This document shows positions 52,425-63,300 of a DNA stretch of 64,000 nt, piece by piece. Made by a program: the position numbers and the translations under genes. The notes under the pieces were generated by a model. That model saw nothing but the letters and a program-made list of their open reading frames with translations. It was not told where the DNA came from and searched no databases. Where the stretch lies: sequence record PZ171032.1; one strand, 5' to 3'. The stretch comes from a phage. How positions within the stretch are numbered: the stretch's first letter is position 1; every line of letters starts with the position of its first letter.

Positions 52425-52486
52425 TTTTCAGATCTCCTTATACAAAAATGCCCCACCCTTTCGGGCAGGGCTATGTCAGTTAGGTG

Positions 52487-53110
52487 CTAAAAGTATTCAT
52501 AGAGGTATCCATCGGGAGCTGGAATTTTTTCATGAATGTAGTAATCAACACATATTCCGGTTTCTCTTCTACAAGAGTTGTGGGATACCCATTCTTTAAG
52601 AATGTTGCCATTCATGTCCAGCCTCCTTACATTTTTACACCGTCTACCGCTGGTGCTTCTATGCAACAGAATATCCTCCGTCTGCTTGTCTTTATTTTCT
52701 CCCCAGGTCGTTAAACGGATATTATCAAAAGAGTACCCTTTGAAATCATCTATCCTGTCACAAGAAGGCTTTTTCCTTTTGTCGTATCCGCTGGCTACCC
52801 ACTGATCATACAACTCTTTGTAACCGTTTAGGTATAGCCACTCCTTAAACTCTTTTTTGGTGTAAGTCGGAGGAGGGTGACCTCTTTGCTTGCTGTTGCA
52901 CTTTTGAGACTTGTACAGCACGCGTATTACACCTTTTTCTGAAGAGTCGTGGGAAAACTGGTCAGCCTCTCTGCTGGCCTTCTTACAGCACTCTTTGCAC
53001 TTATTAAGATGACCGTCAGCCATCTTTGGATGTTTGTAAAACTCGGAGAGGTTTTTCACCTCTCCGCACTTGATGCACCTCTTACAATGCGTAGATTCTA
53101 CTTTTACCAT
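52487..53110 (-). CDS. zinc-finger protein, possibly a free-standing homing-endonuclease-like gene
   Basis: N-terminal CKRCIKCG...CKECC zinc finger with F.K motif and basic C-terminal region; no catalytic motif recognised. Confidence 0.3.
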
Positions 53111-54353
53111 ATTGCAGACCTACCGGAGCGAAAGGTATGTCATCACAGAAGTCATACTGCGCCGGATTCTGACCCATCGGGTCATCTTCCGCATCATTTA
53201 CAGGAGGAGCGTCTACAGTGTTTTGCTGTGGAGCTGCTTCCTGTTTGGCAGCCTGAGGTTCTTGATGGTCGGTTGACCCAGCACCGTTCTTGATCCAATC
53301 GTACAACGGTTCAGCCAGATTAGTCAAGACATCTTTTGCTTCTGCAGTAATTGCCGCTGCAAAATCATCAACTTTCGTTTTCTTGTCAATACGGCGACAA
53401 GCGTTCAACACCGCATTACCGACACTGGCACCTACTTCATCTTCAGTTCGGTTGGTGGCTTGAGCATACTCTTTCTTAAGCTCAATAGTGACTACGTGTA
53501 GTGTTTTAGCCACTCCTAGTGGGTCGTCTACCTTAAACCCGCGATCCAGGATGATTTGCAACGCATTGATGCTATGCCCCGTTTCCACACCGATAGGGTC
53601 GTAAGAGGATTTACGCTTGCCACCAGAGCCTTGAGTACCGTTCTCTGCCTTAGGAGGATAGGCCTTGAAACCACTGATAATGTTTCCGGTGTCTTTGTCA
53701 ACAATGGCTGCAACACGACCACCTACCACCAGGTCTTTAAGCTGCTCATCAGTTACAACCATAGCACCTTCGCCAATCTTGTGGTCATTAACAGTAACCA
53801 CGTTGCCAACAATCTGAGTCACATCACCATAGATGCGTAAAACGTCCTGATTGGCATTCTGCTGAGGTTTCTGCTTCTGGCCTTGTGATTGTGCACCTTG
53901 TTGCTGTTTTTGCTGCTGAGTCGCTGCTGGAGCCTCTCCTGCACCCAGCTTAACCATCTTAGCCAGTGAGCCTTTGTAGTAGGTCTTACCGTTATGCTCG
54001 TTTGCCTTCAAAGGGATATTTACGATCCATCCTGGCGTTACGGTTTCCCACTTGTCATCAATTTTAACAGAGACAGAGTCTTGATGACCCGGTTTAAGCA
54101 GCTTATCGCCCATACTGATCCAAACTTCTTCACCACCTTGAAGTAGGTTATCAGAGGAATCCAGTTCAGAAATCAGTAAAGAGATGGTGTGGCTGGATTC
54201 AATTTTCTTACCTTGCCACACAGTGGTTTTAATACCTGTTGTAGGATCAGCACCTTTGATAGGCTTGATGCTGACACGTTTAATCATGCCGTGAGCTAGT
54301 AAAACAGTTTCACGCGGATTCATCGGGTTAGCGAATTGTTGAATAACGCTCAT
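53082..54353 (-). CDS. SSB-like / ssDNA-binding or recombination-associated protein (tentative) with Q-rich linker and internal DFCDDIPF motif
   Basis: Gln-rich low-complexity linker ([20 protein letters not shown]) and ...YDFCDDIPF resembling the E. coli SSB C-terminal tip, but followed by 19 more residues that overlap the downstream gene. Confidence 0.35.
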
Positions 54354-54718
54354 TATTTGTCTCCTTGTTCTTCGTTAGTGTTTGCCGTGTGTGCAAACCC
54401 TGCTTGAATTAATTTGTCCTGAACTTGAGCCAACAGGCCCATTGCAAAACTTGTGGTCCCAGAGAGGGCCATCAACATATCTCGTTGTTGAGCTACCCAA
54501 CCTAAGGCATAGTCCAAACGACGATATTTTTCTTCTTCACGCAGAGCCTGAAATAATTGTTCAGCCTCCGGTTGTTGTGTGAGCTCCTGAAGTCTTCCCA
54601 TGAAAGAAGAAAGCACTAGCAAAAGAGACACTTGATCTTTACTTAACCCTAAGAAAAATTCTTGAGGTTGTTCTTGCTCGTTCATCGCAACCGACTCTTG
54701 ATCGTTCATTTGTTCCAT
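54353..54718 (-). CDS. hypothetical protein
   Basis: 121-aa ORF. Confidence 0.45.
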   Translation of the reverse strand: MEQMNDQESVAMNEQEQPQEFFLGLSKDQVSLLLVLSSFMGRLQELTQQPEAEQLFQALREEEKYRRLDYALGWVAQQRDMLMALSGTTSFAMGLLAQVQDKLIQAGFAHTANTNEEQGDK

Positions 54719-57897: not shown

Positions 57898-58739
57898 CAA
57901 TAGTTCAGGTAGGTCGTTAAGCTACCCCGCACCATTACGTGCACAGCCATACAGTTTCCTGTATGGATCGGACTATCTCACTACCTTGTTACCAAGGCAC
58001 CTCCCATTTCGACCGCACTTGCTGGCCTACTCTACTCGCTTCTTCGCACCAATTTATGTTGGCGCTATGCTTTCGATAGTCTCTGAACGTTACTACCAGG
58101 TGTAGTTTTTAGAGATATGTTTCCACTGTCTTCTTTGCTTTATGGCTCTGACCGTCTCATAAGGATACCCAAGATCCCTAATCTCGCATTGTCGTAAACC
58201 ACTTTGTAACAGTTCGCAAATCTCCGTTACCTCATCCTCGGTCAGTACAGCGTTGGCATTATACTCACCGACTGGCCTTACTCTGAGGTCATTATCATAA
58301 GCGTGTTTGATATTTCCACCAGGGGTGGTCCATTCAAGGTTCCAGTATGCATTGTTGTATTTGTTTCCGTCCTTATGGTTCACCCATGTGAGCCTTTCAG
58401 GATCAGGGTTTGATACAAAGCATTCAGCAACCAAGTGGTGGACACCTTTTGTGCACTGCTTCCCCTCGATGAACATGGTTACGCAAAGGTAACCTCGACC
58501 ATTATCAAAACAGAACATTGTTGTATGATCACGTTTCGATAAAGGTATTGTTCCATCATCAAACACGGTATATCCGTGATAATCAACTGATCTAGCCATT
58601 TTAACTACACCCCTTTAGTCTTCGCTGCGGATTAGCATATTGAGCTTTTACCATGTTTAGGTGTAAAAGTCAACTTAGCCTTCCCGTCAATTAAAGAGGT
58701 TTTCGACGTGCATCACTGCACGAAGCCACAATGTTATTT
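57898..58739 (-). mobile_element. group I intron in the DNA polymerase gene (842 nt) carrying an HNH homing endonuclease ORF
   Basis: Exon 1 ends in U (CAT), intron ends in G (..TTG). Minus-strand R-like GTTCAGAGACTATCG directly after the HNH stop and S-like AGATAGTCC core elements. Frame and motif C are restored across the junction. Confidence 0.75.
58093..58599 (-). CDS. HNH homing endonuclease (intron-encoded)
   Basis: VHHLVAECF...VNHKDGNKYNNAYWNLEW HNH_3-type motif; AAAGGGGTG SD. Confidence 0.75.
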   Translation of the reverse strand: MARSVDYHGYTVFDDGTIPLSKRDHTTMFCFDNGRGYLCVTMFIEGKQCTKGVHHLVAECFVSNPDPERLTWVNHKDGNKYNNAYWNLEWTTPGGNIKHAYDNDLRVRPVGEYNANAVLTEDEVTEICELLQSGLRQCEIRDLGYPYETVRAIKQRRQWKHISKNYTW

Positions 58740-61163
58740 ATGGTAATAGATAATACGACGAACACCTTCATCGTACCACCCACGCTTCACCATTTGGTGG
58801 TGCATAAGTATCCCAACTAAGTCACACAGCGATGCACCACCATTCTGTTGGTATGCATTAAGTAAAGAGTGTTTAGATCGGGTCCAGATGGCATGACCAT
58901 CAAAAGAGTAGATAAACTTCTTACCCGTTGCTTCCCAGAATTTCTCCAGATCCTCTTTACGCCCCTTAAGACCAGGGTTGGCATCCCAAAGTGCATCGAT
59001 CACCCTTTGTCCCAACTCTGGAGAGATGTCCAGCATATCTGCAACTTTATCTTTTTGTGCCCCGTACATAACCCCATACGTGATAGGTTTACCGTCGTTA
59101 CGAGACACCTCTCTGCCTGCTACTTTTGTATATGCCTCAGCATTGTTTTGGTGTGCGTCCCCGTTACTTACAACATCATAATACAAGCCGTTGTCGAACT
59201 CAAAGGCACCCCAAGCCCCGATAAGCTGCTCTAAGTTGGACCCGTCAATACCGATCTCAAAGTATCCTGGAGGAACACCCCACAGACTACGCATCTCTTT
59301 ACCCATAACCACTTTAGGAGATGGTTTAGGCATGTTTGCACAAATACTGTGTTTCTGTCTGGAAGTGTTTGTTAATCCAGAGCTTTTAGCAGGAAGCTTA
59401 TGGTCAATCTTCAAACGTGGGTGATTAAGAAGACCAGTATCAACCTTATCCTCCTTAATTGGATCAAGGACCGATCTGCGGTTTCGCAATGATAACCACA
59501 AGACGATATCTTTAGCCATCTCTCCGTTCAATTTTTCAAGATTCGGACATAGGTGTCCAAACGTATCTTTCAGTTGCGGAGAAGTAATAAGTGCTCTGGC
59601 TTTTCTACGTATTTTCCCGAATACTTCCTTTTTAATCCTTTCGGAGTTAGGAAAGCTTCGGAACTTGTGCACGGTTGTCTGGAACTTAGCATCAGTTTTG
59701 TTCCAGAAGTTGATAATCAGGTCACAATACTCTGACTCTAAAAGCTCGTCCATATATGCATATACTCGTGCATCAACATCTGCATCAGGTAGAGCTTTCT
59801 TCTTGCTGTCTTTAGTTACATCCTTAGTTCTCCACATTGTCGGAAGCCAACCAGCACTGATCAGGTATCGCTTAATATCGTCCTGATTGCTGATTTTCAT
59901 AGGTATCTTGCAGTCAGGCATTCGCTTCTGCTGCAGATCGCTTATTGCCTGATCCATCAGCTCTTTAGGTAAAGGTTGTGGTGTGGAGGTGCCCTTAATA
60001 TAACCTCTCAAGAAATCAGCCATCTTGTCTGGGTCTTTGCAGCCCATCTCTTCACACCATTTTATCCCCATTTTACTGACATCTCCTGTGGAGGTAAATG
60101 CTCGCTTAGGTGGGGCTTTGAACTCTAAAGCGCTCATGTCTACAGGATAGCCAAGCTTATCTTTTAACCATTTCCAACCATTATTGGAGATTGTCCCATC
60201 TTGGTTAAACGGCTTTTCAGGGAACTTGGGCCGCTGAGACATTGACAGCTCTTTTAAAGGTAGTTGTGGTTCAACACGATCAGCTATTTCTTTCATCCAC
60301 GCATCGCAACGGTCACGTAAAGCAATAGCCCCGTCTATGTCGAAATACACACCCTGACGGGCCTGCAGCTCCATCAGGAAGTGCTGCAGCATGCCTCGGC
60401 GTAATGCGTTCTTCCAGGTGATCTTCTTGAACCCTTTTGGCTTCTCTTTGGCAGGATCGTACATAAAGTTCTGCATGTCAGATTTGCCGTAGAATACACC
60501 TTTTGATTCCGCTACCAGCTCTTTCCAGAGCAGCTCCTGGATGATAACGTCCTCGAATACACGATCCACATACTTCCACAGCGGAAGATCGCGCCAGTCA
60601 TCAATTTGAACTTTCTGGTTACCAAGAGCGTAGCCCCATGCCATAAGGCCGTGAGGACCAACAGGCTGCATTTTCTTAGTAACCGGGTTGAATACAGAGT
60701 CCGGACAACCTTTTGGTAAAGGGCGATCAGGCCACAAGATTCGGCTCATCGCCAACGTATCGAACAGGTTAACCTGGTGGTCGTTGATAGTCCCCATACA
60801 TTTAGGATCACGGAACATATCAAAATGAATACCGGATAATCTCTCCATCAGCATAAAGTCATAACTGTAGCAGTTATGGCAGTTCAAAGCTGTTGGTGAC
60901 CAGTCGGAATTTCCTGTAAGCCAACCTTCCAACTCCGAAAAATCTGCTATGCGAACTTCAAAATCTTTATAAAGAGTTTTCTTTGCCAGAATAAAGTTCT
61001 TAGCCTTCTCTATATCCTCCTCGGAGTAGTGTGTGCGGTCATTTAGAGGAAGGAACAGCATAAAACGGTTCTTATTCAGCTCTTTAAACAGGCCGCAATG
61101 ATAATAAAGATCTGGGTCTTCCAGCAAACCGGATGACTCAAAATCGAACGACCACATGCTCAT
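58740..61163 (-). CDS. DNA polymerase (family A, T7 gp5-like), exon 1 of 2
   Basis: 3'-5' exo motif FDFESSG; LMAWGYALGN, GIDGSNLEQL (motif A), KPITYGVMYGAQ (motif B) colinear with recalled T7 gp5; track ORF stops just before motif C. Confidence 0.85.
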
Positions 61164-61221: not shown

Positions 61222-63300
61222 TTAAAAAGGTGTTTCATCATCCTCAAAACCAGGAACATGGTCAGAGGACGGATCATCGTACTGGAGGTCTTCCTGCGTG
61301 TCAACAGGCTTAACAGTAGGAGTTACAACCTTATCAGCCACAACCTTACCCATAGGTGTTTCTACAACTGCATGCTCCTGATCCTCAAACATAGCCTGAG
61401 GTCTCCAAACAACCTCCCCACCTTCTCCATCTGTAAACATTTGCATTTCTTTGTCCCAGTACCAATTACTGGCATCATGGAACTTACCTGTATGTGGGTC
61501 CATAACCAAAGTGTCTGCAATACCTAAAGTTTTTGCTGGACGGTTTTTAAGACCTACCAGTCGGACACGCCCACGAGAACGATCCACCATTTCTTCGGCC
61601 TCGACACCTATGACTACCCAACTCAACTGTTCAAGCCCAGCCGATCCTCGCAAATTCTCTTTTCGCACAGGATACCAGAAAGGTAACGGGTTACCATCCT
61701 TGTCCTTAGGAGGCACAATCTCTGTACGTTTGAGGTGAGCGATCACCAAGATAAACACATTGAACTGCTTACAAAACGCAGCCAGCTGGGTCATAGCCAT
61801 GTCCAGTTCTTTTCGCTCATCCTTAACATTAAGCCCCGAAATTACCATAGACAGGTGATCCAGCACAATATAACGGCAATGGTACAGGCAAACCATTTGC
61901 TTAAGCTTGGTAATCAACTCGTCCACCGGAATAGACCCGAAATGTTTGAACACTTTGATTTTTCCAGCTTTTGCCCATGATTGGTGAATCTCTGCGTGTT
62001 CTTGATCAGTTAAAAACTGGCTAGGATCTTCAACAAACTCTTTAACATCAAACCCTAGCTGGTTTGCATACAAGGAGTTAATTGCTTCCTCTGGGTCCTC
62101 CTCAAGATGGATCATGCATAGACGATCATCCTCTTCATAGTCATCGGCCTTCGGGCATGTCGGGTCCATCAAGTATCTTGCAATACAATGTTCCAGTTTT
62201 TTAGCTACAGTTGTTTTACCGCCCCCTGATGGCCCTGTAAGCATTACGAGTGTCCCTTTGTGCAAGCCTTTTAGCATTTTTTGCAGTTTTGGAAACTCTG
62301 CGCTGATATCTACCCCGTTGGAAGTCTTTTTCCGCAAAGATTCGATAGAGAAGTCTTCTAAATCCGACACAGCATCAGGCACATACTTAACAGGATGCCG
62401 GAACATGTTTACAATATCTTCCAGCTTTTTAGCCTTTAGCATGTCACGGATATCTTTTACACCGTCAGGATCGTTTACCTCACCGGGGTATTCTACGTGG
62501 TAAACGTTATCAGCCATCAAAAATGCTGCGATATTGTGCGTGGCCTCAACACCTTTAATGACGTGTTTTTGCTTCTCTACCTCGTTAGCTGCATCGTTAT
62601 CCATTGCCAGCACAACTGTTCCATAGCTACGGATAAACTTCTCATTGTTTGCAAAAGTATCTACTGCGTTTGCACATCCACAGTTAATTCCAACAAAAGG
62701 CAGGCATGGTTTTCCTGCCAGATCGCCACCGTTGATAACTGCATCGATCCCGTCCTGGACCTCTTTAGCCCACTGTTTCACCTTTGCCGGGGCTTTAGCG
62801 TTGGTGAGAATCCCTTTTACTTGTATCTGATATGCAGCCTGCCATGCTGCAATAACATCACCTTCTCCCTCACAAACGTTAATCTGCTTACGGTTGTTGG
62901 AAGATGCACACAGCTTTTGACCAAACATCTGAGAGTTAGCCTTTACTATGCCAACAACGGAGAAATGGCCTCTTTGCTCTTTAGGAATCGTCCAGTCACG
63001 CTTTTTGAAACCGGACAGATTTCCGTAGCGGTCGTAATATGGGAAATATGTTGCAGTGACTGTCACACCATCTTCTTGGGATAATGCTGATCGCACACCA
63101 AAATATTGTGCAGCCATCAGACCGATATTTTGTTGTGGGACAGGGACAATTTTAGTATTTTCTAAAACAGTCTCTACAGTTTCAACTTCTTTTTCATCAC
63201 GATAGTCTCGTTTCACACTTCCCCCACTTTTATACTTAGTTGCTTTCGGGTTTGGCTCACCGAAACGGTTGTATGCAGATGCCATAAATTTACTTCCCAT
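61222..63300 (-). CDS. DNA primase-helicase (T7 gp4-like: TOPRIM + DnaB-family helicase)
   Basis: TOPRIM VCEGEGDVIA; Walker A LTGPSGGGKTT; Walker B IVLDHLS; acidic C-terminal tail ending ...EDDETPF. Confidence 0.85.
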   Translation of the reverse strand: MGSKFMASAYNRFGEPNPKATKYKSGGSVKRDYRDEKEVETVETVLENTKIVPVPQQNIGLMAAQYFGVRSALSQEDGVTVTATYFPYYDRYGNLSGFKKRDWTIPKEQRGHFSVVGIVKANSQMFGQKLCASSNNRKQINVCEGEGDVIAAWQAAYQIQVKGILTNAKAPAKVKQWAKEVQDGIDAVINGGDLAGKPCLPFVGINCGCANAVDTFANNEKFIRSYGTVVLAMDNDAANEVEKQKHVIKGVEATHNIAAFLMADNVYHVEYPGEVNDPDGVKDIRDMLKAKKLEDIVNMFRHPVKYVPDAVSDLEDFSIESLRKKTSNGVDISAEFPKLQKMLKGLHKGTLVMLTGPSGGGKTTVAKKLEHCIARYLMDPTCPKADDYEEDDRLCMIHLEEDPEEAINSLYANQLGFDVKEFVEDPSQFLTDQEHAEIHQSWAKAGKIKVFKHFGSIPVDELITKLKQMVCLYHCRYIVLDHLSMVISGLNVKDERKELDMAMTQLAAFCKQFNVFILVIAHLKRTEIVPPKDKDGNPLPFWYPVRKENLRGSAGLEQLSWVVIGVEAEEMVDRSRGRVRLVGLKNRPAKTLGIADTLVMDPHTGKFHDASNWYWDKEMQMFTDGEGGEVVWRPQAMFEDQEHAVVETPMGKVVADKVVTPTVKPVDTQEDLQYDDPSSDHVPGFEDDETPF

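Follow-up and report, generated by a model that had tools for sequence, protein, structure and literature searches.

The free C-terminal Phe on the acidic tip of SSBs is a well-established rule that is used in inhibitor design and in the choice of recombineering partners. SSBs are also recurrent triggers of several defence systems besides DRT10 (Retron-Eco8, DARNA and Hna), and in phage T7, the SSB gp2.5 and the gp4 primase-helicase carry acidic C-terminal tails that end in Phe and dock on the T7 DNA polymerase. The classic partners of the SSB-Ct tip require its alpha-carboxylate (PMC10164576). In phage HK620, the last residues of the SSB, NDYPPF, form a private docking site for the phage annealase Sak4 (PMC5928155). 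The closest described relative of the protein analyzed here is Bas52_0087 of the BASEL phage Bas52, an SSB-like trigger of DRT10/UG17, for which triggering was demonstrated experimentally with the tail-less Bas52 allele only (bioRxiv 10.64898/2026.04.29.721553).

The DNA examined here, referred to as the window, is a stretch of 64,000 nucleotides (sequence record PZ171032.1) from an rV5-like phage. It encodes an SSB-like protein in which the acidic tip is followed by a further peptide, the post-tip tail. The tail appears to be undescribed, the published DRT10 trigger being known in its tail-less form; the DRT10 paper (bioRxiv 10.64898/2026.04.29.721553) mentions neither the tail nor the dimorphism.

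The SSB-like protein and its C-terminus

The features of the SSB-like gene, all on the minus strand, are as follows.

53082..54353, minus strand: SSB-like gene, 423 aa (open reading frame; phrog_4477, E=8e-173)
53940..54353, minus strand: N-terminal beta domain, OB-fold-like, residues 1-138
53850..53933, minus strand: Gln-rich disordered linker, residues 141-168 (AF2, pLDDT <50)
53658..53843, minus strand: second small beta domain, residues 171-232 (AF2)
53289..53597, minus strand: four-helix bundle, residues 253-355 (AF2, pLDDT 87-96)
53154..53288, minus strand: disordered Pro/Gln/Glu-rich linker, residues 356-400 (AF2, pLDDT <50)
53130..53153, minus strand: SSB-Ct-like acidic tip DFCDDIPF, residues 401-408 (open reading frame translation)
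53085..53129, minus strand: post-tip tail, residues 409-423 (open reading frame translation)

The match to phrog_4477 (E=8.2e-173) aligns residues 1-408 with profile positions 1-393 of 393. The PHROG 4477 profile stops exactly at F408, so that the last 15 residues of the protein lie beyond the usual end of the family. The 423-aa protein has no Pfam match at E<=0.1, no NCBIfam match and no PDB sequence match; in particular, the Pfam and NCBIfam searches yielded no match to the SSB OB-domain (PF00436 / TIGR00621).

Comparison of the two proteins identifies the window protein as the orthologue of Bas52_0087, the published DRT10 trigger, with which it shares gene position, length class and predicted architecture as well as D252 and Y351, numbered identically to the published DRT10 escape mutations and assigned to the four-helix bundle region. 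Syntenic orthologues in other BASEL phages are bas58_0088, bas59_0085, bas50_0088, bas49_0089 and bas54_0087. The difference lies at the C-terminus: Bas52_0087 ends in a free FDDDIPF, whereas in the window allele, DFCDDIPF continues for another 15 residues and the frame overlaps an endonuclease gene.

The original prediction called for a fold prediction of the N-terminal domain, and the AF2 model of the whole protein supports an SSB-like architecture that is predicted to consist of two OB folds, a four-helix bundle (helices 253-270, 278-300, 304-321 and 328-355) and a disordered acidic C-terminus. The OB fold resembles those of SSB, RPA or PriB. This architecture agrees with the description in bioRxiv 10.64898/2026.04.29.721553, where the second beta domain is called OB-fold-2; that domain is missing from the phi92-like short family members (a gap in the alignment, P0060-P0067). 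The Gln-rich linker noticed earlier is present at residues ~141-168 and is joined by a second, Pro/Gln/Glu-rich disordered stretch at ~356-400. Like bacterial SSBs with their SSB-Ct DDDIPF, the window protein thus combines an OB-fold, a disordered Gln/Pro-rich linker and an acidic IPF tip; unlike them, it lacks PF00436 homology, has two OB domains and a helix bundle, and carries the tip internally.

That the SSB-Ct-type motif is no longer C-terminal is borne out, the tip being residues 401-408 of 423, but exactly 15 residues (409-423) follow it, not 19 as first counted. The tail begins with APVGLQY immediately after IPF and ends in ...RIYAL before the stop codon. The terminal Phe of bacterial-type SSBs is thus absent from the window allele, with its 15 residues after F408, and present in the tail-less relatives. 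Among these, closest relatives such as nimi, Bas59 and FFH2 end exactly in ...DDDIPF, with the stop codon directly after the tip, which is the arrangement that the original prediction had proposed to look for in orthologues. It had also held that orthologues retaining the extension and lacking both an OB fold and an SSB-like function would speak against it; such retention is indeed seen, but OB folds are present.

The back-translated pattern of tip plus tail occurs once in the window and in none of 100 shuffles. P407 and F408 are invariant among 38 family members, tail-bearing and tail-less alike, which argues that the tip is still functional. In the AF2 model of the full-length protein, tip and tail are disordered (pLDDT <50), and no docking of the tail on the protein's own domains is seen.

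A portable tail on unrelated proteins

Database comparison identifies the post-tip tail as a portable, conserved C-terminal peptide that appears to be previously undescribed: literature searches with tail sequence strings and for tip extensions in phages found no description of it, and the Enc34 and DARNA papers do not mention residues after the Phe. The consensus, AP[IV]GLQY…Φ[YH][ACV]Φ, lies at the extreme C-terminus, immediately after the tip. In the window and in all carriers, AP[IV]GL[QP][YF] directly follows [IVT]PF, and the window tail also terminates as the module does, 14-16 residues past the Phe and in Φ-[YHNL]-[ACVS]-Φ.

At least four unrelated scaffolds bear the tail immediately after an [IVT]PF tip: the PHROG 4477 family, canonical PF00436 SSBs, primase-helicases and the OB-fold SSBs of the T1-like/Vibrio type. 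The PF00436 carriers come from phages and phage-plasmids; canonical SSB profiles stop at the Phe, and the module falls beyond them. Tip plus tail is found in 244 records of phages and 126 of plasmids, and 35 distinct carriers comprise, among others, 23 PF00436 SSBs and 2 DnaB_C helicases. Among 1.84 billion representatives, 48 clusters (50% identity) carry the tail pattern, nearly all matches ending within a few residues of the protein C-terminus; in IMG/VR, all 47 tail matches lie 14-16 residues ahead of a stop codon. A scan of species-representative genomes gave only ~9 true matches, all in SSB genes, from gammaproteobacterial/marine genomes and one plasmid, so the tail is not a feature of housekeeping SSBs. 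Clustering of the genes around 56 tail loci revealed no universal neighbour, only group-specific methyltransferase or annealase genes.

The free-Phe rule is broken by a sizeable natural group of SSBs from phages and phage-plasmids, with hundreds of records annotated just 'SSB', and by some primase-helicases, and because all carriers break it in the same conserved manner, an interaction mode or a regulatory layer has probably been missed. Neither a beta-clamp-binding motif (QL[SD]LF) nor a PIP-box fits the tail. The HK620 SSB was considered as a precedent and set aside, its NDYPPF tip being terminal, with no extension (PMC5928155). There is a likeness in that the tail-bearing SSBs of g341c and of T1-like phages adjoin Erf-type annealases; the HK620 motif, however, differs from that of the window protein, stops at the Phe and is tail-less.

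Within the PHROG 4477 family, sampled as the 72 homologues found, 28 members carry the tail. The tree of these 72 shows that the tail has been gained or lost very often, with at least 14 changes of state, some between nearly identical proteins, and parsimony places a tail-bearing protein at the root. The BASEL phages provide a near-isogenic allelic series, with the tail in Bas49, Bas50 and Bas54 and without it in Bas52, Bas58 and Bas59. Vequintaviruses with the tail and those without it are viable laboratory phages, so that the tail is dispensable or, at most, conditionally useful.

The codon statistics indicate purifying selection on the tail at the protein level. In the distal tail codons, those outside the search pattern, and in sequences that are not phylogenetically independent, codon positions 1/2/3 have entropies of 1.08/0.78/1.61 in the 14-aa class and 1.10/0.85/1.63 in the 15-aa class, and of the codon differences that involve one nucleotide, 61-68% are synonymous where 22-23% would be expected. 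The most conserved part is the proximal half, APIGLQY, although the search pattern fixes the first seven tail codons and their conservation in IMG/VR is therefore partly ascertainment bias. The commonest 14-aa class reads QYP (TAY CCN).

The endonuclease gene and its junction with the tail

As originally proposed, the SSB-like open reading frame runs into a homing-endonuclease-like gene, a 207-aa zinc-finger frame. The features of the junction are the following.

52487..53110, minus strand: free-standing homing-endonuclease-like gene, 207 aa (phrog_1035 'endonuclease VII', E=5e-40)
53003..53153, minus strand: mosaic patch of ~150 nt comprising the tip variant, the tail and the endonuclease zinc finger (alignment with slur12)
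52450..52471, minus strand: intrinsic-terminator-like hairpin closing the SSB-like/endonuclease unit

The putative endonuclease combines an N-terminal CxxC...CxxC zinc finger with a candidate PacI-like HNH region. It matches several HNH PHROGs at E~1e-4 and, weakly (E=0.068), PacI (3ldy), with the DR(I/S)DxFxGYSxxNxRL stretch aligned; it has no Pfam or NCBIfam match. The two genes do overlap, by the last 29 nt of the SSB-like frame. The endonuclease ATG lies within the tail codons (CAA T ATG GT) and is read in the +1 frame with respect to the tail; within these codons there is also a Shine-Dalgarno-like sequence, GGTAGGT; the ATG and the TAGG[TA] Shine-Dalgarno-like sequence take up tail codons 3-4 and 7-8, and the Y-A codons of the '...IYAL' tail endings create a second ATG. 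The frame and the junction between tail and endonuclease are constant in 8 contexts.

The mosaic patch diverges from slur12-type phages, whereas the flanks on both sides are 97-99% identical. The same module recurs after T1-like SSB genes and after Seunavirus primase-helicase genes, with ~70-72% identity of the DNA, and continuous DNA homology spans the tail and the endonuclease start downstream of three gene types. In 32 independent Vequintavirus records, the 151-nt module of tail plus endonuclease start is at least 90% identical, and the two parts co-occur in all 32. The endonuclease gene is sporadic among phages that are 97-99% identical: of 116 records, ~65 lack it, 19 have a slur12-type gene and 32 have the window-type gene. 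In Vequintavirus, the tail and the gene are present or absent together, as one clean 640-nt indel in the alignment with nimi, the cassette being inserted after the Phe codon and ahead of the stop codon; in relatives without either, the terminator-like hairpin comes directly after IPF-TAA. Elsewhere, the tail stands alone: in PVP-SE1, GAP31 and the phi92-like phage PD06, it is followed by a terminator, with no endonuclease gene downstream, and in one relative, it lies beside a decayed endonuclease stub.

Tip sequences vary in proteins that are otherwise 97-99% identical, and this variation, together with the mosaic patch, fits the co-conversion or target immunity typical of homing endonucleases. 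The element resembles T4 seg/mob-type and HNH PacI-like homing endonuclease genes in its sporadic presence in near-identical genomes, its location at the end of a conserved gene, its divergent, co-conversion-like flanking patch and the existence of decayed copies. It differs from them in that its 5' end prolongs the upstream protein in frame with a conserved sequence, the two frames overlapping by 29 nt. With the start signals of the endonuclease inside the tail codons, this would be one of the rare instances in which a selfish element gives a neighbour gene a functional peptide extension.

What the tail may do

The joint reading that we propose, and to which we give an even chance, is that the tail is a specificity switch on an ssDNA hub and that an endonuclease family lands on, and spreads, the DNA that encodes it. 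The classic SSB partners (ExoI, RecQ, PriA, chi, RecG and others) anchor the alpha-carboxylate that a terminal Phe leaves free; with the tail in place this group is gone, so by analogy with other systems the classic binding mode should be off. The composite motif DDIPF-AP[IV]GLQY...Φ[YH][ACV]Φ-COOH would instead be offered to a different partner, encoded by the host or by the phage, and we infer that the tail would in this way act as a specificity switch. The endonuclease family, for its part, would use the conserved tail-coding DNA both as landing site and as translation start and would spread its own version of the tail along with itself. The effect of the tail is probably to redirect the tip or to mask it. 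Since the tail is also present in P22-like phages, which have no polymerase of their own, it is unlikely that there is a single partner encoded by the phages. A more sweeping version is possible but doubtful: the tail might be a widespread switch that turns the free-carboxylate SSB-Ct into an internal composite motif and thereby re-routes SSBs and primase-helicases from the partner network of host SSB to a private partner or hides them from tip-dependent immune sensing, with a dedicated zinc-finger HNH family of homing endonucleases recognizing the DNA that encodes the tail, carrying its versions from one replication gene to another, unrelated one and so driving the rapid on/off polymorphism.

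Several alternatives compete with the specificity switch. The best of them, although unlikely, is that the tail is an arms-race mask or decoy: burying the tip would spare the phage protein detection through the host SSB-partner network or would prevent it from disturbing that network, one example being competition with ExoI/SbcB that tunes DRT10, and close relatives would alternate between capped and uncapped alleles under defence pressure. The frequent switching of the tail (at least 14 changes, some among nearly identical proteins) and the requirement of classic tip binding for the alpha-carboxylate (PMC10164576) suit this explanation, as does the finding that DRT10 triggering depends on the tail-less Bas52_0087, for whose C-tip an interference with SbcB was proposed. 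The DRT10 escape mutations, however, are in the helix bundle, not in the tip, and a pure mask needs no conserved sequence, yet the tail and the underlying tip alike show conservation. The natural toggling of the C-terminus of a DRT10 trigger bears directly on phage sensing and escape.

It is quite unlikely that the tail is only a DNA-level part of the endonuclease element, serving as landing site, ribosome-binding site and start, with a functionless peptide and with endonuclease-less tails as recent scars of its loss. Such a view would account for the ATG and TAGG[TA] in the tail codons, the second ATG in '...IYAL', the junction constant in 8 contexts, the joint presence of tail and endonuclease start in all 32 Vequintavirus records and the tail beside a decayed endonuclease stub; frequent on/off switching, too, suits the cycle in which homing endonuclease genes invade and are lost. 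But at 43 of the 47 tail loci in IMG/VR, no such endonuclease gene lies downstream, QYP (TAY CCN), in the commonest 14-aa class, offers no ATG, and by parsimony the family is tail-bearing at its root. The third-position variability and the 61-68% synonymous changes in the SSB frame, moreover, indicate selection on the peptide. In the overlap itself, the peptide in the SSB frame is more conserved than the endonuclease N-terminus, as in the pair QYGRNFLHCF / QYGKHRIYAL, compared with MVETSCIASKVC / MENIESMRFKKC for the endonuclease.

Very unlikely is a removable pro-peptide or a degron, under which a free ...IPF-COOH would be exposed at particular times or in particular places only. Many C-terminal degrons end in hydrophobic residues, and the hydrophobic ends of the tails (…IYAL, …LMCM, …IHCI) offer a weak analogy; the strong conservation of the tip under the tail and the disorder of the tail in the AF2 model also point this way. 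Against this, no protease or cleavage motif was identified for the tail, its F-A-P junction is not among known processing sites, and the best-conserved part, APIGLQY, is not something that a simple degron requires.

There is next to no probability left for an extension that is a sequencing or assembly artefact, or a meaningless read-through after an insertion displaced the stop codon, both raised originally and in keeping with the stop exactly at ...DDDIPF in nimi, Bas59 and FFH2: the concordance of 32 independent Vequintavirus genomes with the identical arrangement rejects the error, whereas the read-through is countered by a conserved peptide, with codons under protein-level selection, that PVP-SE1, GAP31 and PD06 keep without the endonuclease gene, that also follows the tip on canonical SSBs and primase-helicases, and that has homologues in distant genera and on unrelated proteins.

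Tips and tails on other replisome proteins

The window encodes two further replisome proteins of interest.

61222..63300, minus strand: primase/helicase, 692 aa, ending in FEDDETPF at the stop codon (DnaB_C and AAA_25 matches)
58734..61163, minus strand: probable family A DNA polymerase, 809 aa (PF00476, E=1.5e-6, a weak match below the gathering score)

The primase/helicase is the second tip-bearing replisome protein of this phage and is tail-less, as is that of PVP-SE1, which ends in ...DEDTPF. Its orthologues in GAP31 and K54_rec1 have the C-terminus ...D[DN]DTPFAPIGLQYA[NK]HAIY[AV][LI], and in some members of the phage group, the SSB-like protein and the primase-helicase both carry the tip plus the tail. 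The sharing of the tip, and sometimes of tip and tail, by these two proteins suggests, by analogy with T7, a common docking peptide: as with the T7 pair of gp2.5 (SSB) and gp4 (primase-helicase), both protein types here end in an acidic ...[IT]PF tip. The T7 tails, however, stop at the Phe, with no post-Phe extension known, and bear no sequence relationship to the window proteins. The gene of the probable family A polymerase is located directly downstream of the primase/helicase gene, the syntenic genes of GAP31 and PVP-SE1 are annotated as DNA polymerase, and the protein is a candidate for a phage-encoded partner of the tip and tail peptides.

The SSB-like gene and its product

The source phage is an rV5-like coliphage of the genus Vequintavirus, and the 2.4-kb region around the SSB-like gene is 95-98% identical to dozens of Vequintavirus genomes. 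The local features are:

53082..54353, minus strand: SSB-like ORF, 423 residues
Residues 401-408 of the SSB-like protein: SSB-type tip, DFCDDIPF
52487..53110, minus strand: zinc-finger ORF for a putative endonuclease, 207 residues, with its ATG within the tail codons
52471..52450: strong terminator-like hairpin, 3' of the endonuclease ORF

In the window protein, the tip is followed by a tail of fifteen residues. The original prediction counted 19, wrongly: the letters it printed number fifteen, as found here. It was right that the ORF runs into the start of the zinc-finger gene; the two ORFs share 29 nt, with the endonuclease ORF shifted by +1 from the tail frame. Upstream, the TAA of the phrog_7310 gene (54353..54718) shares one base with the SSB-like ATG (TAATG, window 54351..54355), which suggests translational coupling along the operon.

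Searches of Pfam, NCBIfam and PDB sequences with the SSB-like protein returned no match. PHROG 4477, a family of unknown function, matches it with E=8e-173, and the profile ends exactly at F408. An AlphaFold2 model with 38 homologues as input (mean pLDDT 75) shows the following architecture:

Residues 1-138: beta domain
Between the two beta domains: disordered Gln-rich linker
Residues 171-232: second beta domain
Residues 253-355: four-helix bundle
C-terminus, including tip and tail: disordered

The same architecture, with the C-tip FDDDIPF, is found in Bas52_0087 of the BASEL phage Bas52, the phage protein without which the DRT10 (UG17) reverse-transcriptase defence is not triggered; D252V and Y351C are the escape mutations (2026 preprint, 10.64898/2026.04.29.721553). 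Both D252 and Y351 are present in the window protein at identical numbering, and the orthologues in other BASEL Vequintaviruses have gene indices 0085-0089; the SSB-like gene is therefore the orthologue of the published defence trigger. However, that preprint covers only the tail-less form of Bas52_0087, whereas the window allele is tailed.

A conserved tail within the family

The tail is present in 28 of the 72 family members. Orthologues with a stop right after DDIPF, which the original prediction proposed to look for, do exist: the close relatives nimi, FFH2 and Bas59 (98-99% identity) end in ...[SA]FDDDIPF-stop. The Seunaviruses PVP-SE1 and GAP31 (~39% and ~36% identity, respectively) end in ...DDDIPFAPIGL[QP]YGRNFIHCI-stop, followed by a terminator, and the phi92-like PD06 (~31% identity) in ...APIGLQYGRNFLHCF-stop. 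In all three, the tail is homologous and no endonuclease gene follows. The tip under the tail stays conserved: in 38 members, tailed and tail-less, P407 and F408 never vary. The extension is neither error nor junk.

Tails fall into two length classes, of 14 residues (e.g., APIGLQYPALLMCM) and 15 residues (e.g., APIGLQYGRNFIHCI, ...AKHAIYVI and ...GKSRIYAL). In the distal codons, to which the statistics are confined since the proximal seven were ascertained by the search pattern, nucleotide entropies at positions 1/2/3 are 1.08/0.78/1.61 in the 14-residue class and 1.10/0.85/1.63 in the 15-residue class, and 68% and 61%, respectively, of the single-nucleotide codon differences are synonymous, compared to the expected 22-23%, all in sequences that are not independent of each other. 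These entropies and the synonymous excess indicate purifying selection on the tail peptide in the SSB frame.

The tail on other proteins and replicons

A tblastn search with tip and tail yielded 244 phage records with the tail covered and 126 plasmid records (e.g., NZ_CP009570.2 and NZ_CP141750.1), mostly non-mobilizable, phage-plasmid-like replicons of 40-95 kb. In the plasmid records, the carriers are annotated SSBs. A back-translated pattern detected 47 loci in IMG/VR, with the motif 14-16 residues before the stop codon in every one. Among 1.84 billion representative proteins searched with a profile, there were 48 clusters, with nearly all matches ending at most a few residues short of the C-terminus. 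Only about 9 of 185,579 species-representative genomes have the tail; all of these carriers are SSB genes, either in gammaproteobacterial or marine genomes or plasmid-borne.

Canonical PF00436 SSBs make up 23 of the 35 distinct non-family carriers, and DnaB-type primase-helicases two; the rest, including a T1-like/Vibrio OB-fold SSB group, mostly have no Pfam domain, with one portal protein match. The canonical SSB profiles stop at the Phe, and the tail falls outside. A 4-kb IMG/VR contig (L053:2030-3931) contains a 634-aa ORF that combines an SU10-type portal (PF23899, E=2e-178) with an SSB-like Gln-rich linker, tip and tail, probably a chimeric assembly.

The window itself encodes a second protein with the tip:

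61222..63300, minus strand: primase-helicase, DnaB_C match; C-terminus FEDDETPF-stop, tip at 61225..61248

Its orthologues in GAP31 and K54_rec1 have both tip and tail (...D[DN]DTPFAPIGLQYA[NK]HAIY[AV][LI]-stop), and that of PVP-SE1 has the tip only (...DEDTPF-stop). Thus, the tip is common to two replisome proteins in this group of phages, each of them tail-dimorphic. This is reminiscent of phage T7, in which the SSB gp2.5 and the primase-helicase gp4 each dock on the polymerase via an acidic, Phe-ended tail. The window gene directly after the primase-helicase is probably a family A polymerase.

Coupling to the putative homing endonuclease

The 116 Vequintavirus records represent three states: A, with neither tail nor endonuclease gene (nimi, Bas59; roughly 65 records); B, tail-less (EFDDSIPF-stop), with the endonuclease gene starting 8 nt past the stop (slur12, Bas58; roughly 19); and C, with the tail and an overlapping endonuclease gene (the window, rV5, Bas49, Bas50, Bas54; roughly 32). 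The protein-core tree requires at least 14 changes of tail state, and its root is tail-bearing by parsimony.

Compared to state A (nimi), the window has a single clean 640-nt insertion (53129..52490) between the Phe codon and the stop codon, and the spacer past the endonuclease ...EYF-TAG aligns with the nimi spacer past IPF-TAA. Phe precedes the stop codon in the endonuclease (...EYF) as it does in the tail-less SSB-like protein (...IPF). Either the tail-less allele resembles an exact deletion from one CTTT(T) motif to the other, or the cassette resembles an exact insertion at this point.

Compared to state B, the flanks are 97-99% identical, and the difference is a patch of ~150 nt (53153..53003) that encodes the endonuclease zinc finger as well as the variant tip and the tail. 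Uninterrupted DNA homology to this module (70-72%) occurs 3' of T1-like SSB genes (morffagbaw, ESh4) and also 3' of the primase-helicase genes in GAP31, NINP13076 and SalP219. In eight contexts, the endonuclease ORF has the same +1 offset from the tail frame, and its ATG is formed by Q-Y-G/A codons (CAA T-ATG-G), by Y-A codons in ...IYAL, or by both, with TAGG[TA], from [IV]-G codons, 8-9 nt upstream. In a relative of 82% identity, a metagenome contig (L082, 2700-2900), the tail is followed by a decayed endonuclease stub (ATGCCTTGTAATAGGCTCATCAAGTGTG...TACTTTTAA) and the same terminator; here, the tail has outlasted the endonuclease gene.

The endonuclease matches phrog_1035 (E=5e-40) and, weakly, the HNH restriction enzyme PacI. 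Residues ~115-140 align with PacI DRSDSFEGYSPQNARL, not with the classic D-H...N...H HNH motif, and therefore the endonuclease may be a PacI-like beta-beta-alpha-metal nuclease.

A possible specificity switch

In complexes of SSB with its partners, the C-terminal Phe is buried and its alpha-carboxyl group is held on a basic lip, and removal of the Phe abolishes binding (PMC10164576). The anatomy, distribution, selection and cassette structure of the tail are observed here; as to mechanism, the tail would abolish this free-carboxyl binding mode, and the longer composite motif, ending in a new hydrophobic C-terminus, would be offered to a different partner. In effect, the tail would be a specificity switch. 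As for the endonuclease family, it would use the conserved tail-coding DNA as both landing site and translation start, and would bring its own version of the tail along.

In Vequintavirinae, the phage polymerase is a plausible partner, but it cannot account for tailed SSBs of the P22-like or T1-like kind, which adjoin Erf-type annealases. Other candidates are a conserved protein of the host or partners that differ between groups; analysis of the genes neighbouring the tail loci was of no help in pointing to the partner.

Ranked by our confidence, the alternatives to a specificity switch begin with an anti-defence mask, which is unlikely, albeit the strongest of the four. Somewhat less probable still is a DNA-level feature of the endonuclease element, and we consider a removable pro-peptide or degron quite improbable. 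An artefact or meaningless read-through, by sequence error or a displaced stop as originally proposed, is practically negligible given the homologous tails of the distant PVP-SE1, GAP31 and PD06.

Novelty and related records

The gene family and its tip are already known (10.64898/2026.04.29.721553), as are free-standing homing endonuclease genes as a kind. To judge from the searchable literature, there appears to be no description so far of the conserved post-tip tail, its occurrence on unrelated SSBs and primase-helicases, its rapid on/off turnover, or its coupling to an endonuclease with start signals inside the tail.

Several GenBank records labelled 'Campylobacter phage' (MG065639-MG065690, host C. 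jejuni; 16 in one search, 20 in another) share 97-98% identity with coliphages of the rV5-like and phi92-like types; probably, the host labels are wrong or the preparations were contaminated.
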